64,000 nt of DNA from Minisyncoccota bacterium (GTDB lineage Bacteria; Patescibacteriota; Minisyncoccia; Phycocordibacterales; UBA9973): positions 90,732-154,731 of the forward strand of contig JALOQM010000001.1 of the NCBI GenBank assembly GCA_025453495.1, given 5' to 3'. The notes beneath the pieces are model-generated. The model was not told the DNA's origin. It was given only the letters and a program-made list of their open reading frames with translations, and did no database searches. A program made the translations under genes and the position numbers. Of this stretch, positions 13,282 through 45,491 are shown piece after piece (within the stretch, counting starts at the first letter, position 1; each line of letters starts with the position of its first letter).

Positions 13282-13358
13282 GAATAACAAGGGCGAATCA
13301 TGATTTACAAAAACACACAGTACTAAAAAATCATTACTAGTACTGTTTTCTCTATATG

Positions 13359-25688: not shown

Positions 25689-25742
25689 CTTTACCTGACA
25701 TATCTATACTTTCATTCCAAGGTTAAACCTTGGAAATAAAAC

Positions 25743-26531: not shown

Positions 26532-26538
26532 TATTTGT

Positions 26539-26901
26539 ATGAAGTATTGTATTTTCTTTTTTTCGATTACACTCTTTTCTTTCTTCTTCGCTGCACATAT
26601 CTCGTTTGCCGCACTCGGGACAATGCGCTCATTCGGCGGAAGAGTGATAAGTACGACGACACCAGGTATTACTTGCGGAGCACAATACGGCATGATGAGT
26701 ATTCAGCCTGTCGGAGTATTTCCAGCAACAGGCTATACCATCACTGCAACCACTCAGTCTGTTAATCCTGGAGGTTGGATTTTGGGACTCTACAACGCGA
26801 CACCCACAACTGGTATTTGTTATACCAACACTGCTCCACCAATCCCTGTGCCTTCATTTAACATACTTAAATTTAGCACCTCAAAACCTTCTCTTTTTTA
26901 A
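26539..26901 (+). CDS. Small secreted protein (120 aa), first gene of the T4SS-like operon
   Basis: Signal peptide MKYCIFFFSITLFSFFFAAHISFA; Gly/Thr-rich mature part with two Cys. Confidence 0.45.
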   Translation: MKYCIFFFSITLFSFFFAAHISFAALGTMRSFGGRVISTTTPGITCGAQYGMMSIQPVGVFPATGYTITATTQSVNPGGWILGLYNATPTTGICYTNTAPPIPVPSFNILKFSTSKPSLF

Positions 26902-26912
26902 TTTTTTAAATT

Positions 26913-27854: not shown

Positions 27855-30530
27855 ATGAAATCTGCCACTCGACCAACACGGATACTTGCCGGCATGTTGC
27901 TCGGAACGATAGCTTTGCAGTCGGCTTTTCTTGCACCACCCACAAAAAGTGCTGAAGCGCTCGACTTTACTGCCGCATCACAAGGAGTTCTTTCTGCTAG
28001 TGTCAGTTGTGGTGTAAACAATCTATTGCAAAGAAACCTTTCGAGTAAACTAGGTGGCCTTATTGAAGGTGAGGCGCTAAGTGAAGTGAGTGGTGCAGCT
28101 AGTGTACAAGTAGGCGACAGAGAAGTAAGAAGGCAACAAGAAGCTTTAACATTTAAAGAAACATGTCTAAAAAAAATTGCTCGCGCTGCTTCACAGGTTG
28201 TCTTGAGAGAGATAACGAGACAGACGGTCAACTGGATTAATACTGGCTTCAATGGTCAGCCACTTTTTGTAAGAAATCCACAATCATTCTTTAAGAGTCT
28301 TGCTGATAGAGAAGTACAGCGTTTAACGTCGACATTTAGAAATAGAAATAACTATCCGTTTGGACAATCGTTTATCAGAGGCTACGTGCGTGCAACACAA
28401 AGAACATTTGAACAAAATAGCGTTTATAGTCTTCGAAATTCTCTTGGCGGCTATACACCACAGCAATTTTATAGTGATTTCAATCTCGGTGGTTGGGATG
28501 GGTGGCTTGCAATGACACAACAGCCACAGAATAATCCTATTGGCTTCAGTATAGAAGCATCACGAGAACTCAGTCGTCGTCTTGCAGGTACACAACAATC
28601 AGTGGCACAAGACATACGAGATGAGCTACAGCAAGGAATGGGATTTCTCTCACCAAAAGTCTGTGTCGACCCAGTCGGCTATATTCCACCATCTGGGGCA
28701 GTGATCAGTATTACTGAAGTCGAAAATCTCGCATTAAATGATCCTATTAGTCTCATAAATCAAATGGGTATAACACCAGAGCAGGCAGCAGCAGCAATCG
28801 GTGTTAGTGTAGCTGATCTCCAAGATCTCAATGAAGAACAAATTGCAAGTCTTATAGGTGCCGCACAAACAGCTGGCTATGACCAATATGTTGATCAGTG
28901 TCGCCGCTATGAAACTACAACTCCAGGAGGTGTAGTTTCAAGTCAACTGACCAAAGTTCTTAATATACCAACAGACAATCTCTTACTTGCACCAGAAGAT
29001 CTCGACAGCAGTCTACAAGCAGTCTTTGATGCACTACTCAACCAGCTTTTCAAAAAAGGTCTTGCTTCACTTTCTGATCTTTCAAATGGTGACACTGGTG
29101 GAACTGGAGCAAGTAATATCGAAGTATATAGCGGTGGCGGGTATGGTTCAAATGCAAGTGCGACGCAAAATTTCTCGGCAACTACAAATGTGAATGATCA
29201 ATGGTTCAATCAAAACCGGCAGTTTGACATTACTAATATTGCTTCAATCCAAGAAATTATTGATACTCAAAATGAGTATATACAAGCAATCATTGATGAT
29301 CCAGCAATTGAATCCCCACTACCAAACCCAACAATAAATTCAGCGAACTACCCTCTTCCTGCAGTGCTCTATACAAGCGCAAAAGGTCAAAATTACTGGC
29401 TGAATAGAATAATCCCTGAAATCTATCAACTTGACTACTGTATACCTGGACCACACCCAGGCTGGGAAAATGAAGCACAAGCAAACTTCTTTGCTATAAA
29501 ATCTAAAATTACTGATACAAAAAATCTTAACGAAACAGCGCTTGGCAGGATATACGATACATTTACCTTTGGTTTAGGAACATCAGTTATTAATTTTTGG
29601 ACAAATGTAGCTACACCGGGTGACGTAAATGCTGATGATCTTAAACATATAAGATACTATGGCGCGCTTATACAGAATCTCACAGGCATACAGGCAGAAG
29701 CTGACAAATACATTCTCTCATACGAAAAAGTGATAAAAATTCTTGATACGCTCTTTGAGCGGTTCGTTGTACAAATGAATAGACAGTTTGATCCAGTCAA
29801 TCTCCCCTCATCCGCAGGTGAAGCAGCACTCCTTTATGCCAAAATTCCTGGATATACATCAATTCTTCAGAAAAATACCCAAGACATTGTATCGCTTAGG
29901 GGTGTTGTACGTAGACTTGAAGAAATCAAACAAGAAATAACACTCATCAACACAGAACAAGCGACACTTGATTCGCAGACGCTCTCTGGTGCTATAAGTC
30001 AATCACAAGCTGAAATTATACAAAATCAACTTGACAACAGGCTTGATTTTGCAAAGCGCTCATTTGGTAATCAAGCACAAAATTTTGTCACAGATGCTAA
30101 TACCTTAGCAATAAAAGATCAAACACGGCAGTTAATTAGTGACATTGTGTATATACACAACACCTTACTCAAAGGTCCAAGCGGGTGTGAAGCACAAATA
30201 CAGTTTGTACCAGTCGAATCTCGAGTACGTGCATGGCCGTACCAGAATCCTCATTATTATGATTATCCAAAAGGTGGAAGTGGTACTACACTAGTTGATA
30301 TTGGTAGTCTTAAACTAGACCCAATCACTAACAACCTTATCGGTGCTCCACTACGAAGCTATACGACCTATTATCCATTTATGGAATACTCTTATTTCGG
30401 TAATTCAAACTGGAGTGGCTATCGACCAACCTGGAGTCAGATTTATATTACAGATCTCATGAATTTTGACACCGGTGAAGTAGGTAACACTGTCGGTATA
30501 TTTGAAGCACGACTTATGTTTGGAGAATAG
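27855..30530 (+). CDS. Large secreted protein (891 aa) of unknown function, translationally coupled to the upstream gene (TAA-ATG)
   Basis: Signal peptide MKSATRPTRILAGMLLGTIALQSAFLA; no recognisable catalytic motifs. Confidence 0.55.
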   Translation: MKSATRPTRILAGMLLGTIALQSAFLAPPTKSAEALDFTAASQGVLSASVSCGVNNLLQRNLSSKLGGLIEGEALSEVSGAASVQVGDREVRRQQEALTFKETCLKKIARAASQVVLREITRQTVNWINTGFNGQPLFVRNPQSFFKSLADREVQRLTSTFRNRNNYPFGQSFIRGYVRATQRTFEQNSVYSLRNSLGGYTPQQFYSDFNLGGWDGWLAMTQQPQNNPIGFSIEASRELSRRLAGTQQSVAQDIRDELQQGMGFLSPKVCVDPVGYIPPSGAVISITEVENLALNDPISLINQMGITPEQAAAAIGVSVADLQDLNEEQIASLIGAAQTAGYDQYVDQCRRYETTTPGGVVSSQLTKVLNIPTDNLLLAPEDLDSSLQAVFDALLNQLFKKGLASLSDLSNGDTGGTGASNIEVYSGGGYGSNASATQNFSATTNVNDQWFNQNRQFDITNIASIQEIIDTQNEYIQAIIDDPAIESPLPNPTINSANYPLPAVLYTSAKGQNYWLNRIIPEIYQLDYCIPGPHPGWENEAQANFFAIKSKITDTKNLNETALGRIYDTFTFGLGTSVINFWTNVATPGDVNADDLKHIRYYGALIQNLTGIQAEADKYILSYEKVIKILDTLFERFVVQMNRQFDPVNLPSSAGEAALLYAKIPGYTSILQKNTQDIVSLRGVVRRLEEIKQEITLINTEQATLDSQTLSGAISQSQAEIIQNQLDNRLDFAKRSFGNQAQNFVTDANTLAIKDQTRQLISDIVYIHNTLLKGPSGCEAQIQFVPVESRVRAWPYQNPHYYDYPKGGSGTTLVDIGSLKLDPITNNLIGAPLRSYTTYYPFMEYSYFGNSNWSGYRPTWSQIYITDLMNFDTGEVGNTVGIFEARLMFGE

Positions 30531-30596
30531 TAGTAGTCATATACGTACTATGGGCATACGCGAAATTGCCATACTCTGATACAATAAAGTGTATTA

Positions 30597-33500
30597 ATGA
30601 ATCGTTTAAAACGAAAAATAAAATCTGGCTTTAAACACTTTGTGCTCACGCTAGTGCTTCTTGGCGTGACTTTTGCATCACTATTCTCTAGTCCGCTACA
30701 AGTACACGCAGCAGACAGTATGCAAGAGGTATTTCCAGCTACCTCTTCCAGTGATTCAGGAGTAGGCGATATTCTACCAATTGGTACTGTACCCTATAGC
30801 GGCAGGGATGGTGATGAATATATCATTAATGAAAATAATCTGAGTTTGACTCTTGAAGGTACACCAACTTCTCAGACAGTCACATTCAAAATGAATCTCC
30901 GCCTTGGTGGTGATTCTATACAGGGTATAAATCCAGGTAGAAATGGCAATAACACTCTTTACGACGAGGAAGAAGACCTTGGTAGTTGGCAATCAATTTA
31001 CGACACCAACAGTGATGGTAGTTGGCCACCTACTAGCGATAGTGGCAGAGGAATATGGCTTGATATTGGCACAAGTGTAGCTCCTGGACAAGCAAGTGTA
31101 GGATTTGGCTCACCTCCAATTGCACCTGTTATAAACGATCTTGTGCAAGAGTATGACCTCGCGACTCTCATTAACTTCAGGTACACATCGCAAGAAATTA
31201 ATATCACTGTAGGCACAGCAGCTGGACTTACCCCAAATACACAATACTACGCTCGCATTCGTGTTGAAGAATCAGATTCAACAGACAATGCCTACAGTAA
31301 GATTGTCGGATTCAAAACAGGTGCTGCTGGTGATACCGGAGAACAAAGCGAGGAAATCACAGCAAGCCTGACGCAATCTGAAATAAACAATGAAGGACAA
31401 CTTATTGATCTTCTTGACTGCGGTATAAGCACTATATTTACTGATTGTTTGGTTATAGGTTTCTATTACCTTTTTTATGTCCCATCATCATGGATTCTCC
31501 GTGCTGCTGGTTGGTTGCTTGACGCATTCGTTACATTTTCAATCAGTACCAAAGTATATAGTGATCCAAGTTTTATAACAGAAGGATGGAAGATCGTCCG
31601 TGATATAGCAAACATATTTTTCATTTTTGTCCTTGTATATATTGCATTTAAGCTAATACTTGGCGTTAGTGGCTCTGATGTGAAACGTATGCTGACCACT
31701 ATTATCATAGTCGGTGTCCTTATAAACTTCAGTCTATTTTTTACCAAAGTCGTTATCGACTCATCAAATATACTGGCACGCATTTTTTATCAACAGATCC
31801 AAATCACTGGTACTGAAGGTAGGGCAATCACAGATGCCTCAAAACTAGGTGTGGAAGAAAAAAGTCTCTCACAAGCTATTGTCAGTGGTGTAAGTGTAAA
31901 CAAAATGCTCTCTGATGAGACTATTACAAAACTACGTACTATGAATTGGCATAGTACTAGTTCAACATTTTTGATTATTATACTTGGCTTAATTGTCAAT
32001 CTCGTTACTGCTTGGACATTATTTATGAGTGCACTGTTTTTTATAGGGAGGATTGTCGCCTTGTGGGTAGCTATGATATTTTCAGCATTCGCCTTTATGT
32101 CAAACATTGCACCTGATTGGTTTAAACAAATTCCTATGATTAATTGGAGTAGTTGGTTCTCTGACCTTTTAAAGGTTTCCTTTTTAGCGCCGATCTTTCT
32201 GTTCTTTATTTATTTGATTATTGCATTTGTGAATAGCAAATTTCTCGATGGGTTACTGCTTAAAGCAAACGATTTTGATTTTACACAACTCCTCGTCTCT
32301 ATTATGCTCCAGTTTGGAATTTTAATTGTCCTTATACAAAAAGCAAAAGATATTGCTGAAAAACTTGCAGGAGACACAGCTGGTGCCGCTGTAAGTGCTA
32401 TAAAAAAAGGAGCTTCCGCTGTTGGTTCAGTAGTTGCTGGAGCAGGACTTGCTGTAGCAACTGCTGGAGCAGGATTTGCACTTCGTGGCACACTTGGCAG
32501 ATATGCCGCAGATCAGATGAATTCTGAAGAATACAAAAAGAAAATGGCCGAACGCATAGAAAAAGGTGGTGTTCGTGGTTGGCTTGCACAACGAGAACTC
32601 AAATCATATGAAAGTTTCAGTAATGCAAGTTTTGATGCTCGTGGATCAAAAAGATTTCAGAGTGCTCTCACTAGGTTTGGTGGTGCAACTGGTATAAATA
32701 TAAACACTGGAACTGGACACGAGGGAGGACATCTAAGTGATAAAGAAAAGAAAGAAAAAGAGCATCTTGCTATGGTAGAGCTCCTGCGATCAAAGAAAAG
32801 CGATGAGGAGTGGATGGAGTCACTCAGCGAGGATGATCCAGAAAAGAAAAAGTACATGGATGCAAAAAAGAAATACGAGACTGAGAAAGCTGTGTTTGAT
32901 GAGTATGAAAACAAATACAGAGAAGCATACGAGGCTGCAAAAAACTTGCCTGGCTTTAATCTTGACAAATTTAGAATTGACTATGAAAAAGCAAATGGAA
33001 AAGCACCAGATGCGCCAAAGGAAGTCAAAGCATCAGACTATGTTGATGTTTCAAAAATAAACAAAGAGCGCGAACTTAAATATGCAAGATACCTTAGAGA
33101 GAATACATTGCGCGCAAAGATAGAGCGTGCAACAGGTGATGGAGATCTGCTTGGCACGGAGCGTAGCGCACAATTGTCAGCAGCCAAAAAGATCGAAAGA
33201 GAAGCAGCAATGACTGAGAAATCATCAGTAAGTATGTCGAAACTTGCTCGCGCCGCAGAACAAGCAGAATACGATATTGGTCGCCTCAATAGAGAAATTG
33301 AAGCACATCAAACTAAATACTCTGGTACGCCTGAAGAAGTAAAACAAAAAATTACTCTTGAGATAAATACGGCAAAGAATGAACTGAAAGATATTGATCT
33401 AAATGCTGAAATGATGAAACAAAAATATGAAAGTGTAAAAAAGAAAGGTGGAAATACTGCGAGACAAGCTTATATTGCATGGCAAGCTGCTGAAGACAAG

Positions 33501-33632
33501 AGAAAAGAGAAACAAGAAGAAATCGCGGCTCTTGGTAGGGTAACAGAAGATCAGAAAAAACGTATAAGCGAACTTGAAAAGAAAGAAGGAGATCTTGAAA
33601 AGCTCCGAGAAAAGATAGACAAACTTAACTAG
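30597..33632 (+). CDS. VirB6/TrbL-like polytopic inner-membrane protein (1011 aa) with an N-terminal secreted domain and a K/E-rich coiled-coil C-terminal tail of about 450 aa
   Basis: Signal peptide; about 270-aa exodomain; at least 7 TM helices (e.g. IFFIFVLVYIAFKLILGV, TIIIVGVLINFSLFF, FLAPIFLFFIYLIIAF); Gly-zipper AGAGLAVATAGAGFA; C-terminal heptad-like KKKYE/EKKEGDLEK repeats. Confidence 0.55.
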   Translation: MNRLKRKIKSGFKHFVLTLVLLGVTFASLFSSPLQVHAADSMQEVFPATSSSDSGVGDILPIGTVPYSGRDGDEYIINENNLSLTLEGTPTSQTVTFKMNLRLGGDSIQGINPGRNGNNTLYDEEEDLGSWQSIYDTNSDGSWPPTSDSGRGIWLDIGTSVAPGQASVGFGSPPIAPVINDLVQEYDLATLINFRYTSQEINITVGTAAGLTPNTQYYARIRVEESDSTDNAYSKIVGFKTGAAGDTGEQSEEITASLTQSEINNEGQLIDLLDCGISTIFTDCLVIGFYYLFYVPSSWILRAAGWLLDAFVTFSISTKVYSDPSFITEGWKIVRDIANIFFIFVLVYIAFKLILGVSGSDVKRMLTTIIIVGVLINFSLFFTKVVIDSSNILARIFYQQIQITGTEGRAITDASKLGVEEKSLSQAIVSGVSVNKMLSDETITKLRTMNWHSTSSTFLIIILGLIVNLVTAWTLFMSALFFIGRIVALWVAMIFSAFAFMSNIAPDWFKQIPMINWSSWFSDLLKVSFLAPIFLFFIYLIIAFVNSKFLDGLLLKANDFDFTQLLVSIMLQFGILIVLIQKAKDIAEKLAGDTAGAAVSAIKKGASAVGSVVAGAGLAVATAGAGFALRGTLGRYAADQMNSEEYKKKMAERIEKGGVRGWLAQRELKSYESFSNASFDARGSKRFQSALTRFGGATGININTGTGHEGGHLSDKEKKEKEHLAMVELLRSKKSDEEWMESLSEDDPEKKKYMDAKKKYETEKAVFDEYENKYREAYEAAKNLPGFNLDKFRIDYEKANGKAPDAPKEVKASDYVDVSKINKERELKYARYLRENTLRAKIERATGDGDLLGTERSAQLSAAKKIEREAAMTEKSSVSMSKLARAAEQAEYDIGRLNREIEAHQTKYSGTPEEVKQKITLEINTAKNELKDIDLNAEMMKQKYESVKKKGGNTARQAYIAWQAAEDKRKEKQEEIAALGRVTEDQKKRISELEKKEGDLEKLREKIDKLN

Positions 33633-33649
33633 CCAGATAAGAAAAAATT

Positions 33650-34339
33650 ATGATAGATTTTACTGAACAACAAATGGAAGAAAAATTCAATGCGGTCCCG
33701 CGCTCGGTGCGCGCGTTGATCTTTGATCCTATAGTTGGAGAAAAAACACAAAGTATCGGCAAGAAGTATGGATTACTGCTTGATGCATCAAGTGACTTGC
33801 TTGCAATTGTGCAATTTGCTCTTTTTGGATTCATTACTCAAGAAGATATCAAAAAAGAAATTATCGAAGCACTCAAAGTAAGTAATACTGTAGCATCTGC
33901 CATTACTGTAGATATAAAAAACGAAATAGTAGCGCCTATTTTTGAAAAAATGCGCAAGCAACAAGAAGAAACTACTACAGAAAAAATAACTGACGAAGAA
34001 ATTGCACTCCTTCTTACTGAACCTGAAGATGACAGTAGTGGTTTTGCGCAAGCTGGTATTGAAATACAATCAGAGAAACCTTTCATTGGCGACGAGGAAA
34101 AGGAAGCCTTTGAGGAGCATAAGGTATTGCTCAAGCAAATAGAACGTACTACCTCGCCAATACAAACGTCAAACGAGATACAGCGAGGTATTACAGGTGA
34201 AAAATTTTCTGGTAATTTCAAAATTCCTCATGAAGAGCGAGATTATTCGATAAATAAGCAGTCTGACGCAGATACAGTTTCACTCAAAGTAATAAGGCAT
34301 CGTGACCGTGTCGATCCATACCGAGAACCTCTTGAATAA
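33650..34339 (+). CDS. Acidic cytoplasmic hypothetical protein (229 aa)
   Basis: Intact ORF in operon; hairpin aaaatgcccgtagtttgcgggcatttt immediately downstream. Confidence 0.45.
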   Translation: MIDFTEQQMEEKFNAVPRSVRALIFDPIVGEKTQSIGKKYGLLLDASSDLLAIVQFALFGFITQEDIKKEIIEALKVSNTVASAITVDIKNEIVAPIFEKMRKQQEETTTEKITDEEIALLLTEPEDDSSGFAQAGIEIQSEKPFIGDEEKEAFEEHKVLLKQIERTTSPIQTSNEIQRGITGEKFSGNFKIPHEERDYSINKQSDADTVSLKVIRHRDRVDPYREPLE

Positions 34340-34404
34340 CAAAATGCCCGTAGTTTGCGGGCATTTTGCTTTGCCGGCAGTGGAAGATACCATATAATGA
34401 ATAT

Positions 34405-34842
34405 ATGCGATTTGAAGTGCCGCAATTCATTGACGTCGAAGACAAGATTTTCGGCCCATTCACTTTTAAGCAATTTTTATATCTTGCCGGAGGAGCGGGT
34501 ATCATCTATGTCCTTTGGAAACTTCTCCCAGCGATCATCGCCATACCACTCATACTTCCTGTCGCTGGACTCGCACTTGCTCTGACATTTTACAAAGTAA
34601 ATGGTCGACCATTCGCACAAACTATTGAGTCTTGGATGAAATACATCACTCAGGACAAACTCTATCTTTGGAAAAAAAGAGAGCGCAGAAAGACGCCAGA
34701 AAAAACACCAATGCCTGAGACAGAACAAGTACCAATTCAAGCACCACGTCTTTCTGGGAGTAAACTCAAAGACATCGCATGGAGTCTTGATGTTCTTGAT
34801 ATGCAAGAGAACGCAAAGCTCGATAAACTCGACACAAGATAA
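34405..34842 (+). CDS. PrgI-family-like small membrane protein of Gram-positive-type T4SS (functional VirB3 analogue)
   Basis: MRFEVPQFIDVEDKIFGPFTFKQFLYLAGGAGIIYV then a second TM helix; classic PrgI-family N-terminus and two-TM topology directly upstream of VirB4; start moved to ATG 34405 because the upstream in-frame Met lies inside the preceding hairpin. Confidence 0.6.
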   Translation: MRFEVPQFIDVEDKIFGPFTFKQFLYLAGGAGIIYVLWKLLPAIIAIPLILPVAGLALALTFYKVNGRPFAQTIESWMKYITQDKLYLWKKRERRKTPEKTPMPETEQVPIQAPRLSGSKLKDIAWSLDVLDMQENAKLDKLDTR

Positions 34843-34849
34843 CTAACAT

Positions 34850-35488
34850 ATGGCTATCAACGCAAAAGCATCACAAGAATTTGTACCTGTTAAAGAAGTG
34901 CGCGACGGTATCGTCGTCTTAAAAGATGGCAGCCTTCGTGCTATTTTGCTTGCTTCATCAATCAATTTGTCACTCAAGTCATATGAAGAACAACAGGCAG
35001 TTCTTTTACAATTTCAGAACTTTCTCAATTCAATAGATTTCTCAATGCAGATCGTCGTCCAATCTCGCCGACGTGACATGCGTCCATATCTTACACTACT
35101 TGAAAACAGAATGCGTGAACAAACTGAACCACTCTTGAAAGTGCAGACGCGCGAGTATATTGAATTCATCAAAAGCTTCACGGAGTCAGTGAGTATTATG
35201 ACAAAAAACTTTTTTATCATCGTTCCGTATTCATCAGTATCATTGCCTTCAGCTGAGGGTGTTATAAAAAAACTATTTGGTGGCACAAATAAAAAAACAG
35301 TAGCTCAAGAAGAATTAGCAAGCTTTGAAGAAAAACGTACACAACTTGAGCAAAGAGTTGGCACTATCACACAGGGACTTTCCCGTATGGGTGTCAGAAC
35401 AGCACAGCTTGGTACTGAGGAGGTTATAGAACTTTTCTATAAGATATTTAATCCGGGAGAAATAACTGCAAGTATTAAATCACAATAA
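34850..35488 (+). CDS. virB4: VirB4/ConE/PrgJ N-terminal domain encoded as a separate ORF (first part of a split VirB4)
   Basis: EFVPVKEVRDGIVVLKDGSLRAILLASSINLSLKSYEEQQAVLLQF matches the conserved Gram-positive VirB4 N-terminus; TAA stop 1 nt before the ATG of the ATPase ORF. Confidence 0.6.
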   Translation: MAINAKASQEFVPVKEVRDGIVVLKDGSLRAILLASSINLSLKSYEEQQAVLLQFQNFLNSIDFSMQIVVQSRRRDMRPYLTLLENRMREQTEPLLKVQTREYIEFIKSFTESVSIMTKNFFIIVPYSSVSLPSAEGVIKKLFGGTNKKTVAQEELASFEEKRTQLEQRVGTITQGLSRMGVRTAQLGTEEVIELFYKIFNPGEITASIKSQ

Positions 35489-35489
35489 T

Positions 35490-37538
35490 ATGGGCTTTTT
35501 TGATACATTGTTTGGGAATAAGTCAAAAGTAAAAGAAGCGGAAAAAACGCCAGTGCTTTCTGTCTTACCTGAACAAATCTATGAATCAGCAACCCTCGAA
35601 TTCCAAGACATCATCGCACCATCTGCTCTTAAAATAGAGTCGAAATCTCTAAATCTTGGCGAGAAAATAACACGCACGTTTTTTGTTATTTCCTATCCAA
35701 GATTCCTGACCGATAATTGGTTCTCACCGATAATAAACCTCGACAAGATTTTTGATGTATCAATCTTTATTCATCCTATAGATTCACAGAAATTGCTTCG
35801 CGATTTCCAGAAAAAAGTCGCAGAAGTTCAAAGTCAGATCAACACCAGAGAAGCAAAAGGACTTGTCAGAGATCCAATGCTTGATACTGCTTACCGTGAT
35901 CTTGAGGCGCTTAGAGACAATCTCCAACAGGCGCAAGAACGGGTCTTTGAGGTTGGACTGTATATCACAGTATATGCTGACAATGAAAATGAGCTTTTCA
36001 AAGTTGAAAATGAGATAAAAACTATCCTTGAATCACGCCTTATTTATCTAAAACCAGCACTCTTTCAGCAAGAAGAAGGATTTAAGAGTGTTTTACCGAT
36101 CGGTAATGATCTTCTCTCAGTACACCAAAAACTCAATACTGAGCCGCTTTCGTCTATTTTTCCATTTGTGTCCTTCGACCTCACAAGTGACAATGGGATC
36201 CTTTATGGCGTAAATCGACACAATGCGTCACTTGTTATCTTTGATCGTTTCTCCCTTGAAAACTATAATTCAATTATCTTTGCAAAGTCCGGAGCTGGAA
36301 AGTCGTATGCGACGAAGCTTGAGATTATCCGTACACTTATGTTTGATACTGACGTGATCGTTATCGACCCAGAACGTGAGTATGAGTATCTTGCTGAAGC
36401 AGTCGGTGGACGCTATTTCAATATAGCGCTTTCTTCTGATCACCACATCAACCCATTTGATCTACCAATTCCACGTGAAGATGAAACGACAGCTGACGTG
36501 CTTCGCTCAAACACAATCAATCTTGTCGGCTTGTTTCGTATCATGCTCGGCGGACTAACACCAGAAGAGGACGCGCTCATAGACAGAGCGATTACAGAAA
36601 CATATGCAATAAAAGATATTACTGCTGATTCAGATCTCAGTGACATAGAACCACCACTGTTGTCTGATTTTGAGCTTGTTCTTGCTGGTATGGAAGGAAG
36701 CGAAAAAGTACTCCAACGTCTGACAAAATATACTAAAGGATCTTGGTCAACCTTTATAAACCGCCCATCAAACGTCGACATCAACAAGAAATTTGTCGTC
36801 TTCTCTGTGCGCGACATGGAAGATGAGTTGAAGCCTGTCGCTATGTATATTGTCACGCACTTCATCTGGAACGAAGTGCGTAAATCAATAAAAAAGCGCC
36901 TACTTGTCGTCGACGAAGCATGGTGGATGATGAAATCAGAAGACACCGCTTCATTTCTCTACTCAATCGCAAAAAGAGGGCGTAAATACTATCTTGGCCT
37001 CTGTACTATCACCCAAGACGTTGGAGACTTCATGAGAAGTCCCTATGGTGTGCCTATTGTAACAAACTCTTCATTGCAGCTTCTCCTTAAACAATCACCG
37101 TCATCGATTGATCTTCTACAGAAGACATTTAATCTCACCGATGAAGAAAAATATCTTCTTCTTGAATCTGCCGTTGGTGAGGGCATCTTCTTTGCAGGAC
37201 TCAAGCATGTTGCCATAAAGATCATTGCCTCATACACCGAAGATCAAATTATTACCTCAGATCCATCACAAGTACTTGCTATAAAACGCGCTAAGGAAGA
37301 ATTTGAAGCATCTGAAACGCAAAGAGAACAAGCTATTGTTTCAGAGACAGAAATAGTAAGAGCGCAACCATTTGAAACAACAATAGCACCTAAAACAATA
37401 CCTGAGACAGAAGAAACAATAGACGCAGCTGAAATGACACCTGTCCGACAAAAAACAAAGGAAGAGTCACAACTTGATGAGCTTGCCATCCTTGATGAAG
37501 ACCTCAAAGAAATCGAAGAGGATATTGTCGGAAAATAA
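35490..37538 (+). CDS. virB4: VirB4/TrsE/CagE-family T4SS ATPase (central and ATPase domains)
   Basis: Walker A IIFAKSGAGKSYATK; HINPFD motif; Walker B LLVVDEAWWMM; RKYYLGLCTITQDVGDF motif. Confidence 0.85.
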   Translation: MGFFDTLFGNKSKVKEAEKTPVLSVLPEQIYESATLEFQDIIAPSALKIESKSLNLGEKITRTFFVISYPRFLTDNWFSPIINLDKIFDVSIFIHPIDSQKLLRDFQKKVAEVQSQINTREAKGLVRDPMLDTAYRDLEALRDNLQQAQERVFEVGLYITVYADNENELFKVENEIKTILESRLIYLKPALFQQEEGFKSVLPIGNDLLSVHQKLNTEPLSSIFPFVSFDLTSDNGILYGVNRHNASLVIFDRFSLENYNSIIFAKSGAGKSYATKLEIIRTLMFDTDVIVIDPEREYEYLAEAVGGRYFNIALSSDHHINPFDLPIPREDETTADVLRSNTINLVGLFRIMLGGLTPEEDALIDRAITETYAIKDITADSDLSDIEPPLLSDFELVLAGMEGSEKVLQRLTKYTKGSWSTFINRPSNVDINKKFVVFSVRDMEDELKPVAMYIVTHFIWNEVRKSIKKRLLVVDEAWWMMKSEDTASFLYSIAKRGRKYYLGLCTITQDVGDFMRSPYGVPIVTNSSLQLLLKQSPSSIDLLQKTFNLTDEEKYLLLESAVGEGIFFAGLKHVAIKIIASYTEDQIITSDPSQVLAIKRAKEEFEASETQREQAIVSETEIVRAQPFETTIAPKTIPETEETIDAAEMTPVRQKTKEESQLDELAILDEDLKEIEEDIVGK

Positions 37539-37570
37539 GAAAAGCAATGTTTTAATGGTATACTCTCTGT

Positions 37571-37996
37571 ATGGATGAGATATCAGCTAATACTACAAGC
37601 GATCAAATACAACCAAGTGCAACAGCACAAGACGATACTATAACACAAATGACAACCGTGAGCGCTATTGAAGAGGAGGTGGCGAAAGAACTCGGCACTG
37701 GTGATACAGTTGCTCCTGCAGATAGCTTACAAGACAAAGCAAAAAAACTTGCTACTGCTCGCCTTGCCCTTGAAGAGAAAATTATAGCTCTTGAGCGAGA
37801 TGTCAAAGCAAAGCTTGCGGCGCTAAAAGAGCTCAAAGCGGCACTAGAAGAAGAGATAGGGAAGATCAAAGAACTCAAAGAAACTGAAGGAAAAATCGAT
37901 ATACAGTTACAGAAAATCGATGATCTTGAGAAAAAGCGAGAAGAAATCGAGAATGAAATAAAAAACATCGAAGCCACTACAGCAGGTGTCTCATAA
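37571..37996 (+). CDS. Acidic coiled-coil protein (141 aa)
   Basis: ALEEKIIALERDVKAKLAALKELKAALEEEIGKIKELKE heptads. Confidence 0.45.
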   Translation: MDEISANTTSDQIQPSATAQDDTITQMTTVSAIEEEVAKELGTGDTVAPADSLQDKAKKLATARLALEEKIIALERDVKAKLAALKELKAALEEEIGKIKELKETEGKIDIQLQKIDDLEKKREEIENEIKNIEATTAGVS

Positions 37997-38022
37997 CTGC
38001 ATATAAGTGATATAATCAAAAC

Positions 38023-39033
38023 ATGCATCGTATCGGCAAAATCATACTCCTTGGCACACTCTTGATGGGCGTACTTTTGTTTTCCCCAGTTACTATAGAT
38101 GCACAATTTACTGGAAATACTGACATCACAGTAAATGTTAGTCCTACTATTCCAGGTCCAAATGAAGAAGTAGTGGTGACTCTCACTAGTCTTTCAGTAA
38201 ATCTTGATACAATTACTATTAGGTGGGAAATAAATGGAAAAACAGAACTTAGTGGTGTTGGAGAGAAAACGTTGACATTCAAAACTGGTGGAGTCGGATC
38301 AACAACGACAATTGAAGCTTCAATTGATGTTCCAGGTGTGCCGACCATAACCAAGCGTATAGTTATCCAACCACTAGCAATCGACCTGCTTTGGGAAGCA
38401 ACTGACTCGTATACACCTCCGTTTTACAAAGGAAAAGCACTGCTTCCGTCTGAAGGAGTAGTAAAGGTAGTTGCCATACCTGAGATTAAAACAACTAGCG
38501 GAAAGATGCTAAAACCATCTGATTTTACTTATACATGGAATCGCAATCAAAGGGAACAAGCCATTAACTCAGGAAATGGAAGAAATTATTTTTCTTTCCA
38601 GCAGAATTACCTGACAAATGAAGAAGTTATAACAGTAACAGCAAAATCAGTTTCTGGTAACTATCAAGCAACAAAGAAAGTAACAATTACACCTCGTGCC
38701 TCAAAAGTGTTATTCTATGAATTTGATCCAGCGCTTGGAGTCAGATATGAACGCATGCTTCAAGATATTACTGGTGTACAGGTAAATAAAGAAGGACTAA
38801 TTATTACCGCTGAGCCGTATTATTTTTCAGCAAATACTGCTGATACAGCACAGCTTTCATTTGAATGGAATGTGAACAATGAGGAAATTACGTCGCCAAC
38901 AAAAAAACATATGTTACCAGTACAAGTAACCACAAACGGCGTAGCAGAAATTCGAGTTAAGACAGAAGCTAGGATGAAATTATTCCAGGAGGCAACACGG
39001 TCGCTGTTCGTTAATCTTGAAGCAAATGAGTAA
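38023..39033 (+). CDS. Secreted beta-rich (Ig-like repeat) protein, 336 aa
   Basis: Signal/anchor MHRIGKIILLGTLLMGVLLFSPVTIDA; repeated VTxTxK beta-strand patterns. Confidence 0.5.
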   Translation: MHRIGKIILLGTLLMGVLLFSPVTIDAQFTGNTDITVNVSPTIPGPNEEVVVTLTSLSVNLDTITIRWEINGKTELSGVGEKTLTFKTGGVGSTTTIEASIDVPGVPTITKRIVIQPLAIDLLWEATDSYTPPFYKGKALLPSEGVVKVVAIPEIKTTSGKMLKPSDFTYTWNRNQREQAINSGNGRNYFSFQQNYLTNEEVITVTAKSVSGNYQATKKVTITPRASKVLFYEFDPALGVRYERMLQDITGVQVNKEGLIITAEPYYFSANTADTAQLSFEWNVNNEEITSPTKKHMLPVQVTTNGVAEIRVKTEARMKLFQEATRSLFVNLEANE

Positions 39034-40135
39034 TATATTTTTAGTAATTCGTATTCTAGCAATTAGCAGCTCTTTATTAAGTGTGCTTCTTTTCCAAACC
39101 GTAGATTTGGTTTTTGCTCAGGTGCCAACAAGTGACACTACTTCAATTGTAAAAGAAATTTGTGACAACAATATTGACGATAATGGCGATAATCTTGCAG
39201 ACGGAAAAGATCCTCAGTGTTATTTTCTTCTTGCTCCTCTCCCTGGTCTTTCAACAATCAATACAACACAAGGGCTTCCTGCATATCTAAAGGTATTATA
39301 TCGACTAGCAATTGGTATTGCTGGTGTTATCGCAGTAGTTATCATCGTATGGGCAGGTATAGAATATATGATGAGTGATGTTGTGTTTAAAAAAGATGAT
39401 GCAAAGCAACGAATTTGGAACGCACTCGGTGGTCTTGTCTTGCTTATCGGATCATTTGTATTACTCAATACAATCAACCCTGATCTTCTTAATCTAAATC
39501 CTCGGGTGCCCATTAAGGAAATCAATATTGAAGAGGAAGTAGGTGGCGATACTGGTGATGTATTTATCGCAAATTATACTTCTCCGTCAGGAATCTTCTA
39601 TCCACGAAGTGGTGGAGCATCACAAATAAGTCGCATTGTCAGCAGTCTTGATGGAAAAGTTACCTACCGCTTTGGCGGTAAAGGCGGCCCAGCACCGTAT
39701 CCAAGTGATACAAAGATGTGCGAAAATGGTCCGTGCAAAAATTACTGCCCACCGGGAACTGTTTGTCTTGATTGCTCTGGATTTATAAATTATATATATG
39801 TTGGTGCAGGTATTGCACCTATTAATGGCGGGACAGGAACGATATTTTCGTCATCTGAAAAAATTACAAAGATAGAAAACAGAATTATTAACGGAGAAAC
39901 TGCTACGTACGTCAACGATATAGCTCTTAAAACAGGGGATCTTTTAGGATGGGTGGCAAACGAAAATGGAAATAAGGTCGGACATGTTGTTATGTATATT
40001 GGTAATGGTCAAGCAGTAGAATCTACCTCAGGTGGGAATGGGAGAAGCTCTGGTAATGGGTTAAAAAAATTAGAGGTAACACAAAAGTATCTTCGAAAAG
40101 AAGTCCAGCTTTTGACAAGAGTTAAAAGACTATAA
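39017..40135 (+). CDS. Fusion of a pilin-like (VirB2/TrbC-like) two-helix hydrophobic hairpin with a C-terminal NlpC/P60 (C40) cell-wall peptidase
   Basis: Long signal peptide; hydrophobic hairpin LAIGIAGVIAVVIIVWAGIEY ... ALGGLVLLIGSFVLL; NlpC/P60 catalytic motifs CLDCSGFINYIY (Cys) and GDLLGW...GHVVMYIGNGQAVES (His); Asp-rich CDNNIDDNGDNLADGKD loop. Confidence 0.7.
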   Translation: MKQMSNIFLVIRILAISSSLLSVLLFQTVDLVFAQVPTSDTTSIVKEICDNNIDDNGDNLADGKDPQCYFLLAPLPGLSTINTTQGLPAYLKVLYRLAIGIAGVIAVVIIVWAGIEYMMSDVVFKKDDAKQRIWNALGGLVLLIGSFVLLNTINPDLLNLNPRVPIKEINIEEEVGGDTGDVFIANYTSPSGIFYPRSGGASQISRIVSSLDGKVTYRFGGKGGPAPYPSDTKMCENGPCKNYCPPGTVCLDCSGFINYIYVGAGIAPINGGTGTIFSSSEKITKIENRIINGETATYVNDIALKTGDLLGWVANENGNKVGHVVMYIGNGQAVESTSGGNGRSSGNGLKKLEVTQKYLRKEVQLLTRVKRL

Positions 40136-40144
40136 TTAATCATT

Positions 40145-41716
40145 ATGAACAAGCGACAGCGTCTTATACTTATCACAGCAATAGTGCTCCTTGCTCTATG
40201 TGGAGTCTTTGTTTTCTTTTCTATTAGCCAAAAAAGAGTTTCTCTTGAAACTCCAACACTGCGTGAGTTTTTTACTTTTGGAAGATCAAACCAAATTCAA
40301 ACAGAAAGGATGAGTGAACCATCTTCACAAAGAGGAGAAGAAATCGATTCAGAAGCAAGAGGAGGTTCTTTTTTTCTAAAACAAATTACGTCTCGTCCTG
40401 TTGCAGGGGCTGCGGCTGTCAGTGTATCGCGCAAAATAATTAATACAGAAATAAATACAACAGAAAATGAAACTACTGCGCAATGGACAAGAGACCTTAA
40501 GGAAGGTGACACTGGTGAAGATGTTAGAGAATTACAGATATTTTTGAACACCAATATAGAACCTAGTGGTGGTAGTGATAAAACAACCATTGTCGCTATA
40601 AAAGGTGCTGGATCTAAAGGAAATGAGACGACGTATTTTGGTACAGCAACTACAGCTGCGCTTCGTATTTTCCAAGAAAAATTCGAAATAGAAAGCACTG
40701 GGATTGCTGACGAAAGAACAAGAAAAAAAATATTTACACTACAACAAAGTATTCCAAAAGAAGAAAAAGTAACTGCAGTGCGATACGTTGATAAGAGAGA
40801 TGGGACTATTTTTCAAACATTTATAGATACTATTGAAGAAAAAAAAATATCTGGGACCAAGATTCCGAAAATACATGAAGCGTATTTTGGCAAAGATGCC
40901 CTAACTACACTTTTGCGTCTTGTGGAAGAAGATGGTGTAACTATTGCAACCTACGCTGGTACACTTCCAAAGATTATTGAGGGAGGGGATTCAATTACAA
41001 ACATGAGAGGTTCTTTTATAGAAAGAAATATAGAATCACTTTCTTTTTCTCCTGATAAAAGTAAATTCTTTTACCTTGTGAGTTCTGGTCAATTTACAAA
41101 TGGGATCATTGCAAGCGCAACAGGTGGATCAAAGATACAAGTATTTTCATCTCCATTTAGTGAATGGTTACCTCAATGGGTAGATGATCGTACTATCGCA
41201 CTAACAACAAAACCAGCAGCATCTTTTGGTGGTTATCTCTATACGCTTGATACAAAAACCAAAGAATTCAAAAAAGTGATGAGTGAGGTACCGGGACTTA
41301 CCACCCTCTATAGTCCGAATGGTAAAAAAGTACTATACTCTCGGGCAACAAAAAATAGAAACAGCTTTCTTACTGCGATATACGATACAGAAACAAAAAA
41401 ATCTACTGATCTTGATGTGCACACACTTCCTGAAAAATGCGTATGGTCTAATGATAGTATTACACTCTACTGCTCTGTACCTAAATATATAAACGGAGGA
41501 GAGTACCCGGACGTGTGGTATCAAGGAATACAATCGTTTAGTGATATGATCTGGCAAATAAATACAAAAGACGGAATTCTAAAAAGAGTGTCTGATCCTT
41601 TCCAAGAAGCAGGAATCGAAATTGATGGAATACATCTTTTCCTTGATACTGAAGAATCAAATCTTTTTCTCACCAATAAAAATGATTCTTCTCTATGGAC
41701 ACTCACACTCAACTAA
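40145..41716 (+). CDS. Membrane-anchored protein with a peptidoglycan-binding domain (PG_binding_1-like) and a C-terminal TolB-like beta-propeller
   Basis: TM helix LILITAIVLLALCGVFVFF; GEDVRELQIFLN...TTAALRIFQEKFEI PG-binding helix pair; YSPNGKKVLYSR / TAIYDTETKK propeller blades. Confidence 0.6.
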   Translation: MNKRQRLILITAIVLLALCGVFVFFSISQKRVSLETPTLREFFTFGRSNQIQTERMSEPSSQRGEEIDSEARGGSFFLKQITSRPVAGAAAVSVSRKIINTEINTTENETTAQWTRDLKEGDTGEDVRELQIFLNTNIEPSGGSDKTTIVAIKGAGSKGNETTYFGTATTAALRIFQEKFEIESTGIADERTRKKIFTLQQSIPKEEKVTAVRYVDKRDGTIFQTFIDTIEEKKISGTKIPKIHEAYFGKDALTTLLRLVEEDGVTIATYAGTLPKIIEGGDSITNMRGSFIERNIESLSFSPDKSKFFYLVSSGQFTNGIIASATGGSKIQVFSSPFSEWLPQWVDDRTIALTTKPAASFGGYLYTLDTKTKEFKKVMSEVPGLTTLYSPNGKKVLYSRATKNRNSFLTAIYDTETKKSTDLDVHTLPEKCVWSNDSITLYCSVPKYINGGEYPDVWYQGIQSFSDMIWQINTKDGILKRVSDPFQEAGIEIDGIHLFLDTEESNLFLTNKNDSSLWTLTLN

Positions 41717-41719
41717 GCA

Positions 41720-42226
41720 CTATTGTGAAGTATAAGAAATTATAATTCTTCTTTGCTCACCTTCTCCTACAGATTCAGTCTTGATATATTCTCTTTCTGA
41801 TAAAAATTCATGAACAATACGCCGCTCAAAAGAGTTCATCGGGTCAGTTGAGATAGTTGAAGCAAAAAACTTTGCTCGTTCAGCGAGCATGTGTGCCACG
41901 CTTTGTATTTCTTCGATTCTTTTTTGCTGATACCCGTCAATATCAATAATCAGATTTTCTTCTAGTGCCTTATCTTTTCTCATATACTGAACCTGCTTTT
42001 TGTTGATGATCTTTTTTACTAGGTGATTAATACAGGCAAGTACTTCTCCATGCTTGCCGATTAAAGAACGAGGATCAGACACAGTAACACAATAGAGCAA
42101 CGTATGCTCTTTGAGACTATGGGGCACGGGCACTACCTCAACACTAGTAGTAGGAAAAGATAGTTTTTCAAAGAAATCACTGATAGTGCTTCGTATTTCC
42201 TTCTGTGCATCCATGTAACTACTCAA
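41720..42226 (-). CDS. jag: Jag/KhpB RNA-binding protein (KH plus R3H domains)
   Basis: R3H motif ERRIVHEFLSER; conserved position downstream of yidC. Confidence 0.8.
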   Translation of the reverse strand: MSSYMDAQKEIRSTISDFFEKLSFPTTSVEVVPVPHSLKEHTLLYCVTVSDPRSLIGKHGEVLACINHLVKKIINKKQVQYMRKDKALEENLIIDIDGYQQKRIEEIQSVAHMLAERAKFFASTISTDPMNSFERRIVHEFLSEREYIKTESVGEGEQRRIIISYTSQ

Positions 42227-43001
42227 TAACTTTTGCTTGTACAGACACAGTGTTTCCTTCTGTCTTTTTTGCTAACCTGCGACGTATTATGATTTCTTGA
42301 AAAATAGTGAAAATATTACTTGTTGCCCAATAAAGTGCTACTGCTCCAGCAACTTGATATGAAATAATTCCGACGAAAATAGGAAGTACATACTGCATTT
42401 GCATTTGCATACTTTTAGCAAACTGTTTTTGAAAAGATCCGTCATTCGTTTGTTGCTTTTGTTTGGGAAGTGTTAATCTAGCCTGTATAAACTGGGTGAC
42501 AGCTGCCAAAATAGCAAGAACAATACTTTTCCCACTCATATCAAGAAATCCTAGAAATTGTGTATTTATAACAGGCGGAAAGGAGACACCCTGATACAAA
42601 AGACCAGCATCCAAAGAAAGTGCTCCAAGAAAAACCTTATAGAGAGCAAAAATGACAGGAAGTTGGAGAAGTACTAGTAGGCATCCTGAAAACGGATTAA
42701 CTTTATATTGTTTATATAATTCAAACGTTCTTCTAGATTGCTCAAGCTTATCAGTATATTTTTCTTTTATTGCATCAATCTCTGGCTGCAGGTTGCGAAG
42801 ATGTATTTGGCTTTCAATCGATTTTTTAGCTATAGGATACAAGATAAAACGAACGAGTATTGTTAAAAGAATAACAGCAACACCAATATCTCCTCCAGGG
42901 ATTAAAGATACCAAAAAAGCAAGAGCGTTGTAGAGCGGTTCGTAAAAAATATTATTCCAAAGAGTAGTAATCATTTGCCTATTGTATCGAAAAAAGAGCA
43001 A
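42219..43001 (-). CDS. yidC: Membrane protein insertase YidC (short monoderm type)
   Basis: 5-TM YidC/Oxa1 core, conserved synteny with yidD-rnpA-rpmH. Confidence 0.85.
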   Translation of the reverse strand: MLFFRYNRQMITTLWNNIFYEPLYNALAFLVSLIPGGDIGVAVILLTILVRFILYPIAKKSIESQIHLRNLQPEIDAIKEKYTDKLEQSRRTFELYKQYKVNPFSGCLLVLLQLPVIFALYKVFLGALSLDAGLLYQGVSFPPVINTQFLGFLDMSGKSIVLAILAAVTQFIQARLTLPKQKQQTNDGSFQKQFAKSMQMQMQYVLPIFVGIISYQVAGAVALYWATSNIFTIFQEIIIRRRLAKKTEGNTVSVQAKVIE

Positions 43002-43015
43002 AAATCAATCCCATT

Positions 43016-43237
43016 CTATACTGGGTCAATGTGGTTTTTTTGCCATGGATGACATCGTGAAATCCTGCGGACTGCACGCAGTGTTCCTGAAATCCATCCA
43101 TATTTCTTAATTGCGTCAATTGCATACATTGAACAGGTCGGGTAAAAGACACAGTTGTCTTTTAGGATGCCAAGTTTTTTTAAAACACCAACACTATATT
43201 GATACATTCGTATACACCCGATAAGTAAATACTTCAT
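43016..43237 (-). CDS. yidD: Membrane protein insertion efficiency factor YidD
   Basis: YQ...CRF/YPTCSMYA Cys motif of the YidD family. Confidence 0.85.
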   Translation of the reverse strand: MKYLLIGCIRMYQYSVGVLKKLGILKDNCVFYPTCSMYAIDAIKKYGWISGTLRAVRRISRCHPWQKNHIDPV

Positions 43238-43239
43238 TT

Positions 43240-43587
43240 TTATTTTCTCAATTCTATAAGAGTATCTCTTAATTCATGTACTAAAAGATCATAACTTATT
43301 TTATGAGATCCTTTTTTAAAAAACAAAATACAGAACATGGGTTTTTTTGGCCATAACAGAGAAAGCTCTCGGAGGGCACTATATACTCTACGACGAAGAG
43401 TATTTCTAGAAACTGCTTTTTTTGCGATGGTTTTTGGGACAACAACAGCAAATGCAGTTTGTCTAGTTATTTTTTGTTCAGGTATTACAACACAAGAAAA
43501 AGCGAAAAAACGCTTGTGCAGCAAGCGGGTATTTCTCGTATTTCGGGGAAACTCAGAGCTCCGTATTCTGTTTTTTGACGGGAGCAT
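43240..43587 (-). CDS. rnpA: Ribonuclease P protein component
   Basis: Basic RNR-like motif SRNTLRRRVYSALRE; synteny. Confidence 0.8.
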   Translation of the reverse strand: MLPSKNRIRSSEFPRNTRNTRLLHKRFFAFSCVVIPEQKITRQTAFAVVVPKTIAKKAVSRNTLRRRVYSALRELSLLWPKKPMFCILFFKKGSHKISYDLLVHELRDTLIELRK

Positions 43588-43598
43588 GAATAAAAAGC

Positions 43599-43733
43599 TT
43601 ATACAGAAAGCTTCTTGCGGCCTTTTTGTCTTCGCGCTTTAAGTACTTTTTTGCCGTTTTTTGTTTTTGTTCTGACGAGAAAACCGTGTGTAGTCTTTCT
43701 TTTTCGCTTCGAGGGATTGTATGTTTGCGACAT
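43599..43733 (-). CDS. rpmH: 50S ribosomal protein L34 (44 aa); not in the ORF track
   Basis: Manual translation of the minus strand: [44 protein letters not shown], matching the L34 consensus. Confidence 0.85.
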
Positions 43734-43789
43734 GTGGGTAGTCTAGCGTATTATTAAGAATAAGGCAATTAGCTTTTTTACTACTCTCA

Positions 43790-43855
43790 GATTTTAGTTA
43801 TACACATATTATCAACAAAGTAATCCAGTGATTGTATTTTTTTATCAATCAACAC
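43790..43855. promoter_or_regulatory. DnaA-box-like cluster in the rpmH-dnaA intergenic region (candidate oriC part 1 / dnaA promoter)
   Basis: ttatacaca (43798-43806), ttatcaaca (43809-43817), ttatcaatc (43842-43850); each within 1-2 mismatches of TTATCCACA. Confidence 0.5.
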
Positions 43856-43897
43856 CCATACTATAATGATTCCCAATAGCCACTGGCTAAAAAACCT

Positions 43898-45253: not shown

Positions 45254-45491
45254 TAGCAGTGTGTATAGACTGTTAAAAAAATAAACAATATATGTGAATT
45301 AAGAAGAGTAATTATGTAAAACAAACCATCTATTCAAACACAGCACACAACACAGTATTGTTTTTACACACATATGTATATCAATCTATATTAAAATGTT
45401 CAGTAATAACAACACTATTAGTATCTATCCACATATCCACAGGTCTTTATAGTAGTAGTATGTATTTAATTAATAAATAATATAAAAATAT
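45254..45491. promoter_or_regulatory. AT-rich dnaA-dnaN intergenic region with tandem DnaA boxes (candidate oriC / DNA-unwinding element)
   Basis: Two adjacent TATCCACA 8-mers at 45426-45433 and 45435-45442; very AT-rich flanks (aattaataaataatataaaaatatatg). Confidence 0.55.

Follow-up and report, generated by a model that had tools for sequence, protein, structure and literature searches.

T4SS loci of Patescibacteria and the present gene pair

Type IV secretion systems (T4SSs) of Patescibacteria were surveyed in 3,035 genomes by Quinonero-Coronel et al. (2025; PMC12102498), and homologues of TrsD, described there as a remote homologue of the VirB4 N-terminus with unknown function, were the most abundant T4SS component (2,272 homologues, of which 1,664 adjoin virB4). 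The T4SS loci lie near dnaA, dnaN and KsgA, and in Gracilibacteria the TrsD homologues are unlinked to virB4 (PMC12102498). The TrsD homologue of Candidatus Southlakia epibionticum ML1 is essential (PMC12102498; Wang et al., 2023, PMC10633639), and the essential T4SS locus of this organism is SEML1_0006-0019 (Wang et al., 2023, PMC10633639). Here, we examined a gene pair of this kind in a stretch of 64,000 nucleotides (nt) from a Minisyncoccota bacterium (contig JALOQM010000001.1; the whole stretch is hereafter called the window), in which the VirB4 sequence is divided between two adjacent open reading frames (ORFs), ORF1 (34850..35488) and ORF2 (35490..37538). We consider it very likely that the two ORFs constitute a genuine and ancient two-gene VirB4.

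The gene pair is an ordinary instance of the published arrangement and is already known in this sense (PMC12102498). It comes from the same phylum, has the same neighbours (a PrgI/VirB3-like protein, a pilin-like protein and cell-wall hydrolases), lies in the same place near dnaA, dnaN and KsgA, and contains virB4 with adjoining TrsD and PrgI homologues; nothing substantive was found to differ. A previous reading of the window from its sequence alone (the sequence-only reading) had held that the nature of the split decides whether the whole operon functions, but this question is moot, since the pair is the published norm for Patescibacteria T4SS loci. On the other hand, the survey neither states that the adjoining VirB4 lacks the TrsD segment nor describes clades in which the two are fused. 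The additions made here are that the adjoining VirB4 lacks exactly what the TrsD-like protein supplies, that the same break is common to three other lineages, that a fused clade exists, and that ORF2 carries an N-terminal motif. Our literature searches on TrsD and TrsE gave almost nothing relevant, and TrsD is not named in the main text of Guglielmini 2014.

For single-chain VirB4, the reference is TrwK of R388, which has an N-domain (residues 15-400) and a C-domain (residues 400-760); VirB4 dimerizes through the N-domains, around which VirB3 is wrapped (PMC9259494). Single-chain forms, including R388 TrwK, the CD1110-family proteins and a fused protein of Candidatus Colwellbacteria (P0187, see below), have the same domain content and order as ORF1 and ORF2 when these are concatenated. 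Compared with them, the chain in the window is cut after the first ~200 residues, and at its N-terminus ORF2 has gained ~33 residues that include a conserved motif; in this lineage, it also has an acidic tail.

ORF1 and ORF2 are complementary parts of VirB4

ORF1 runs on the + strand from the ATG at 34850 to the TAA at 35486-35488 and encodes a stand-alone TraC-like/TrsD-like protein of 212 amino acids (aa). ORF2, on the same strand, runs from the ATG at 35490 to the stop codon at 37536-37538 (682 aa) and encodes a VirB4 ATPase minus its first ~200 residues. At the junction TAA-T-ATG (35486..35492, +), the ORF1 stop codon and the ORF2 start codon are parted by a 1-nt spacer (T at 35489). This arrangement, with the two ORFs in different frames, had already been reported by the sequence-only reading, and its coordinates were confirmed; with respect to ORF1, ORF2 lies in the +1 frame. 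Upstream, this frame ends at a TAG (35427-35429); it is open for the 60 nt before the ORF2 ATG (35430-35489), with no other start codon before 35490. The peptide VPVKEVRDGIVVLKDGSLRAIL...EEQ was likewise confirmed in the translated sequence.

The assignment of ORF1 to the VirB4 N-terminus, also made from sequence alone, held up, with the qualification that the homology, though real, is remote according to profile and sequence comparisons. ORF1 matched the NCBIfam profiles VirB4_plasma (profile positions 102-236 of 894, E 1.3e-11), CD1110-family VirB4 (NF045971; positions 3-132 of 752, E 1.7e-7) and TIGR00929 (positions 4-179 of 792, E 2.3e-4), and over its entire length it aligned at 38% identity with the N-terminus of single-chain VirB4 proteins of Patescibacteria. 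It also matched the TrsD/TraD profile NF041427 (positions 18-142 of 201, E 1.1e-8) at 35.1 bits, which is below the curated cut-off of 200, whereas authentic TrsD scores 227.6 bits. The fused VirB4 P0187 matches this TrsD profile as well, within its residues 9-123. The curated TrsD profile was the only means by which the relationship between ORF1 and TrsD was detected: pairwise BLASTP and hhalign comparisons of ORF1 (and of its alignment A1) with TrsD of pSK41 were not significant. With phmmer, ORF1 gave no match to PDB sequences even at E 10. Its tblastn search against plasmids returned only 12 remote matches, none in Enterococcus, so that similarity to PrgJ was not demonstrated. In precomputed annotation, the Pfam family PF26593 ('TraC-like') is assigned to an ORF1-identical protein and to all homologues; hmmscan of our local Pfam-A gave no family at all for ORF1, PF26593 included, and the model may be absent from that copy. 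Thus, ORF1 resembles the members of a known stand-alone family (TrsD/TraD; Pfam TraC-like PF26593), its link to the TrsD family proper being remote; the sequence-only reading had recognized neither this family nor the published gene pair. ORF1 fits the TrsD-type setting, namely a gene of ~200-230 aa between a VirB3-like gene and a VirB4 ATPase without N-terminus, and judging from profile coordinates rather than a structural alignment it would correspond to approximately the first half of the VirB4 N-domain.

The protein identical to ORF1 occurs in a metagenome-assembled genome (MAG) of Candidatus Pacebacteria (Patescibacteria/candidate phyla radiation). Of the 7,851 homologues that were scored, every one of the top 120 (63-100% identity) has a length of 211-225 aa. 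An alignment of 25 homologues is conserved up to the end of the domain (...FNPGE) and is followed by tails of variable length; by this comparison, the end of the family alignment behaves as a true C-terminus. We also noticed three stand-alone TraC-like proteins (P0173, P0186 and P0190) with disordered C-terminal tails of ~200 aa rich in proline, alanine and glutamine.

ORF2 is, by sequence comparison, a VirB4 ATPase that comprises the second half of the N-domain and the RecA-like C-terminal domain, in agreement with the central domain and Walker A/B ATPase ascribed to it by the sequence-only reading. It matched NF045971 at 380.9 bits (curated cut-off 325; profile positions 182-733 of 752), Pfam PF19044 (P-loop_TraG, E 8e-25) and the C-domain of Thermoanaerobacter VirB4 (PDB 4AG5, E 4.7e-42), and in the PDB search residues 446-735 of R388 TrwK aligned to ORF2 residues 260-556. 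The Walker A motif SGAGKS (36288..36305, +) and the Walker B motif LLVVDE (36900..36917, +) both lie within ORF2. A complete N-terminal domain is not present on the ORF2 polypeptide: positions 3-132 of NF045971 are found on ORF1 and positions 182-733 on ORF2. From this complementary coverage, it follows that ORF1 and ORF2 are non-overlapping parts of VirB4.

The N-terminus of ORF2 begins with the peptide MGFFDTLFGNK (35490..35522, +), which is conserved in relatives. The consensus among them is M-[GS]-[IF]-[FL]-D-K-L-F-G-K-K; a variable basic linker separates it from the VLxVLPExIYES segment, which in ORF2 is located at 35553..35588 (+). In the alignment, this N-terminal motif is absent from the fused Colwellbacteria proteins; TrsE of pSK41 begins with MIMAFLKKKK, akin to the ORF2 N-terminus. 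An amphipathic membrane-targeting helix was considered for this region but was not supported by a simple test, the hydrophobic moment being unremarkable (0.27 over 9 residues; 5th percentile for an 11-residue window). At the other end, ORF2 has an acidic, low-complexity C-terminal tail of 86 aa (37278..37535, +; 24 D/E versus 11 K/R) that is lineage-specific: close relatives are 683 aa long and have the tail, and most related species (606-636 aa) lack it. The sequence-only reading had equated the combined length of 212 and 682 aa with that of a normal VirB4. The two parts are indeed complementary, but their sum of 894 aa is ~100 aa longer than fused relatives (775-807 aa), because of the ~33 extra N-terminal residues of ORF2 and its 86-aa acidic tail.

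Conservation of the split in related genomes

To examine orthologous loci, where the same split had been proposed as a check, we scanned one genome per species; 580 relatives were confirmed, and the counts given below are from the best 80 loci. The split was found in all 80: each locus contains an ORF1 homologue (211-222 aa) with its own stop codon, followed by an ORF2 homologue that starts with an ATG aligned to ORF2 residue 1 and has an N-terminus of the form M-x(1-2)-hydrophobic pair. Most of the ORF2 homologues are 606-636 aa long, and one interrupted outlier has 286 aa. The spacer between the two ORFs is variable: 42 loci have 1-10 nt, 12 have 11-30 nt, 25 have 31-123 nt and a single locus has 471 nt; a 1-nt spacer, as in the window, is present in 10 of these species and in a further relative, L084. 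All three frame offsets are represented (37, 23 and 20 loci). In 41 loci, a stop codon in the ORF2 frame, located at the ORF1 stop codon or beyond it, means that no single frameshift can join the ORFs. Where the spacer is long, the DNA between the two genes is often made up of short tandem repeats, such as repeated AGCTAAA in L057 and three copies of GCCTAGA in L013; L005 is another of these relatives.

The same stop and start codons were observed in two independent assemblies of closer relatives, Logan SRR31089965 (93% identity, 1-nt spacer) and GCA_034680565.1 (83% identity, 3-nt spacer). In comparison with L084, the relative at 93% identity, the proportions of nonsynonymous (pN) and synonymous (pS) differences were 0.04 and 0.74 for ORF1 and 0.04 and 0.76 for ORF2. 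Codon comparison thus places both ORFs under strong purifying selection, with synonymous sites near saturation.

Single-chain relatives and the position of the break

A search of 1.84 billion representative proteins yielded 2,301 ORF1 relatives. Among the best 150 ORF1-related representatives (50% clustering), 149 are stand-alone proteins and only one, P0187 (797 aa), is long. P0187 belongs to a clade of VirB4 proteins, many of them from Candidatus Colwellbacteria, that are 775-807 aa long and carry the TraC-like and P-loop domains on one chain. In P0187, residues 1-215 correspond to ORF1 (38% identity) and residues ~229-797 to residues ~38-600 of ORF2 (55% identity); the first ~33 residues and the 86-aa acidic tail of ORF2 have no counterpart in the fused protein. 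Against TIGR00929, P0187 gives one continuous match (residues 17-750 to profile positions 18-725 of 792). The AlphaFold model of P0187 has a mean predicted local distance difference test (pLDDT) score of 69, which falls to ~60 around residues 210-230, and superposes on full-length R388 TrwK/VirB4 (8rtd_O; E 4.5e-26, template modelling (TM) score 0.57). By analogy with these fused homologues, ORF1 and ORF2 are expected to associate.

The sequence-only reading had also raised the question of whether the junction falls in a conserved region, with an alignment to ConE, PrgJ and TrsE in mind. In the alignment with P0187, the break corresponds to a short, poorly conserved linker, and TrsE has the same break (ORF2 residue 49 versus TrsE residue 44). 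In a neighbour-joining tree of the TraC-like module (without support values), the fused clade is nested among stand-alone forms at a depth of eight nodes, and the two outgroups are likewise stand-alone. Because of this nested position, the Colwellbacteria fusion is probably secondary, i.e. a re-fusion, although this polarity is tentative. In two members of the fused clade, P0289 and P0385 (~600 aa), the first residues (MELYFNYYNP...) already belong to the last helix of the TraC-like domain. Such a start suggests real truncations or gene calls affected by a frameshift, unlike the clean natural split.

The same break in other lineages

A close counterpart outside Patescibacteria is the TrsD/TrsE pair of the staphylococcal plasmids pSK41 and pGO1. 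The gene order is the same, with a VirB3-like TrsC, a TrsD of ~220 aa (227 in pSK41) and an ATPase TrsE of ~670 aa (672 in pSK41), and the break is in the same place, as ORF2 residue 49 aligns to residue 44 of pSK41 TrsE (24% identity, E 3e-38). Both ATPases start with a short, hydrophobic, lysine-rich N-terminus. However, ORF1 is only a remote relative of pSK41 TrsD, pSK41 is a conjugative plasmid with a relaxase and a coupling protein whereas the locus in the window is chromosomal, and translation in pSK41 is driven by Shine-Dalgarno (SD) sequences (a 14-nt spacer with GGGAG), whereas the present locus is devoid of SD motifs.

Related arrangements were observed on two other plasmids. On a megaplasmid of Pontibacillus (Bacillota), the gene for a 621-aa CD1110-family VirB4 begins within that for a 274-aa ORF1-like protein. 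On an Embleya (Actinomycetota) plasmid (NZ_CP108778.1; L082, 4596-8157), the start of the ATPase corresponds to ORF2 residue 44 (34% identity, E 7e-113), and PrgI is fused to a TraC-like domain in a protein of 349 aa, which is followed by an unrelated XF1762-family gene before the ATPase. Such a Rosetta-stone fusion implies that ORF1 is functionally linked to VirB3. In addition, the NCBIfam SCO6880 profile gave weak matches to the PrgI ORF of the window (profile positions 13-79) and to ORF2 residues 90-205 (profile positions 363-476).

A two-gene VirB4 and its alternatives

In a genuine two-gene VirB4, ORF1 would supply the first half of the N-domain, which in R388 TrwK is involved in VirB3 contact and VirB4 dimerization, and ORF2 would supply the second half together with the Walker A/B ATPase domain. 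The two proteins, together with the PrgI/VirB3-like membrane protein encoded upstream, would reassemble non-covalently into a functional VirB4 motor, and this motor would belong to the chromosomal, origin-proximal T4SS typical of Patescibacteria. The three genes would be carried by one transcript with a leaderless start at the PrgI ATG. To translate ORF1 and ORF2, ribosomes would re-initiate across spacers of 7 nt and 1 nt without SD sequences.

The sequence-only reading had listed a two-subunit VirB4 (possibly coupled in translation), a programmed frameshift, a pseudogene and an assembly error without ranking them; the comparative data strongly support the first and refute the other three. 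A programmed +1 ribosomal frameshift near the ORF1 stop codon, which would produce a single full-length VirB4, is geometrically possible in the window, as the ORF2 frame is +1 and open for 60 nt upstream of its ATG. However, neither a slippery or RF2-like site nor an upstream SD stimulator is present, the closed ORF2 frame in 41 of the 80 relatives leaves nothing to shift into, the ORFs share one frame and are parted by in-frame stops in 20, and spacers reach 123 nt. It is also the ORF2 ATG and the peptide after it that are conserved, and not the sequence before the ATG as protein. Programmed-frameshift genes of the prfB/dnaX type conserve the frame overlap and the shift site, and neither feature is kept across the 80 relatives, so that we consider such an event highly unlikely. 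The chance that a pseudogenising frameshift broke a once-intact virB4 and left a dead operon appears equally slight. Single-chain VirB4 is the textbook form and fused forms do exist in another Patescibacteria clade, but both ORFs are intact and under strong purifying selection in spite of saturated synonymous sites, every related species shows the same split, and a TrsD-like gene is essential in Ca. S. epibionticum. Moreover, the break lies in a linker and not inside a domain, whereas the apparent truncations P0289 and P0385 begin inside the TraC-like domain. Even less probable is an indel from assembly or sequencing that created an artificial split: the source is a MAG and the junction is A/T-rich, but an identical protein with the same gene calls comes from several sources, the independent assemblies from other samples (93% and 83% identity) share the stop and start codons with spacers of 1 and 3 nt, and 80 other species are split too. 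Taken together, the conserved split with variable spacers and frames, the independent assemblies and the purifying selection therefore exclude all three.

It was also considered that ORF1 is an independent accessory T4SS protein that descended from the VirB4 N-terminus and does not rebuild the N-domain with ORF2, such as a separate adaptor that has partners and a stoichiometry of its own. Several observations weigh in favour of such a protein and against a reassembled VirB4: the ORF1 family has been a separate gene over very deep divergence, some homologues carry disordered tails of 200 aa, the ORF1-like domain of Embleya is fused to PrgI and not to the ATPase, and TrsD homologues of Gracilibacteria are unlinked to virB4. 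On the other hand, ORF2 lacks exactly the segment that ORF1 supplies, and a clade nested among stand-alone forms has the parts fused in canonical order and modelled as a normal VirB4. We consider an independent accessory protein improbable, although clearly less so than a frameshift or an indel, and it partly overlaps with the two-gene VirB4 rather than excluding it.

A further proposal builds on the two-gene VirB4 and assumes that the split is not neutral. A separate VirB3-binding half might allow the cell to set its stoichiometry or to exchange it independently of the ATPase, e.g. only at the membrane-proximal VirB4 positions (compare the central and outside dimers of R388), and the conserved new N-terminus of ORF2 (M-G-I-F-D-K-L-F-G-K-K plus the basic linker) might have evolved as a docking or membrane-binding peptide that keeps the two parts together. 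We regard this proposal as speculative and rather unlikely.

Locus context and expression

Immediately upstream of ORF1, a small membrane protein of the PrgI family (VirB3-like) is encoded at 34405..34842 (+; PF12666, E 2.2e-11, 44.5 bits with a cut-off of 27). The ORF mechanically begins at a TTG at 34366, and the ATG at 34405 is the likely start; the protein has one long hydrophobic stretch (residues 40-78), and syntenic PrgI genes are present in L084 and L085. A promoter-like site (TTGCCG-16 nt-TATAAT, 34371..34398, +), whose -10 hexamer ends 6 nt before this ATG, was the best match (10/12) in a scan of 25500-42500 and represents consensus evidence only. Such a -10-like box is found ahead of PrgI and not ahead of ORF1 or ORF2. 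Of the 47 genes of the window, 14 (versus ~2 expected) have a -10-like hexamer whose end lies 4-11 nt ahead of the start codon, at exactly 6 nt in eight of them; starts of this leaderless type include 26539, 27855, 34405, 37571, 38023 and 40145. SD motifs are nearly absent from the genes of the window, and none was found upstream of ORF1 or ORF2. This pattern suggests that the PrgI transcript is leaderless and starts at the ATG at 34405; in our literature search, leaderless mRNAs were not found described in Patescibacteria. PrgI, ORF1 and ORF2 are probably on one transcript, and ORF1 and ORF2 may plausibly be coupled in translation in this genome. Across the family, the long spacers of some relatives show that such coupling is not generally required.

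The locus is preceded by KsgA and PcrA (23730-26531) and followed by Jag, YidC, dnaA and dnaN (41720-46589). Between KsgA/PcrA and PrgI are genes for an 891-aa protein with a single N-terminal hydrophobic segment (27855-30530) and for a 1,011-aa polytopic membrane protein with ~9 hydrophobic segments (30597-33632), neither of which has a Pfam or NCBIfam match; by its predicted topology, the latter may be a divergent VirB6-like channel protein. Downstream of ORF2, a protein with hydrophobic pilin-like segments (weak PF18895 match) and an NlpC/P60 hydrolase domain (39017-40135) is directly followed by one with a peptidoglycan-binding domain (40145-41716), and both products are candidate VirB1-type wall remodellers. 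Neither a relaxase nor a VirD4/coupling protein was matched among the window ORFs of at least 500 aa in Pfam scans. The locus of PrgI/VirB3-like protein, ORF1 and ORF2 near dnaA looks intact.

Elsewhere in the window, we found a ComEC competence channel (5050-6549, -) and a PilB-like T2SSE ATPase (53711-55408, -), in line with the repertoire of Patescibacteria for DNA uptake and type IV pili. The ORF of the CCA-adding enzyme (11809-13416, -) probably has its true start further downstream, because the listed start overlaps tRNA-Arg (13358-13430, -) on the same strand.

Implications

These results leave current understanding of the system unchanged. The virB4 region of the window is intact, and two genes should be annotated there, one for a TrsD/TraC-like N-module and one for a VirB4 ATPase, rather than a pseudogene or a frameshift. 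If the proposal of a non-neutral split were true, the separation would represent an assembly-control step specific to the T4SSs of monoderm bacteria and Patescibacteria that are essential for epibiotic growth. Independently of this, the occurrence of one break point in three lineages, together with one probably re-fused clade, points to a natural domain boundary in VirB4, which could help in designing constructs for structural studies of VirB4 proteins from monoderms.

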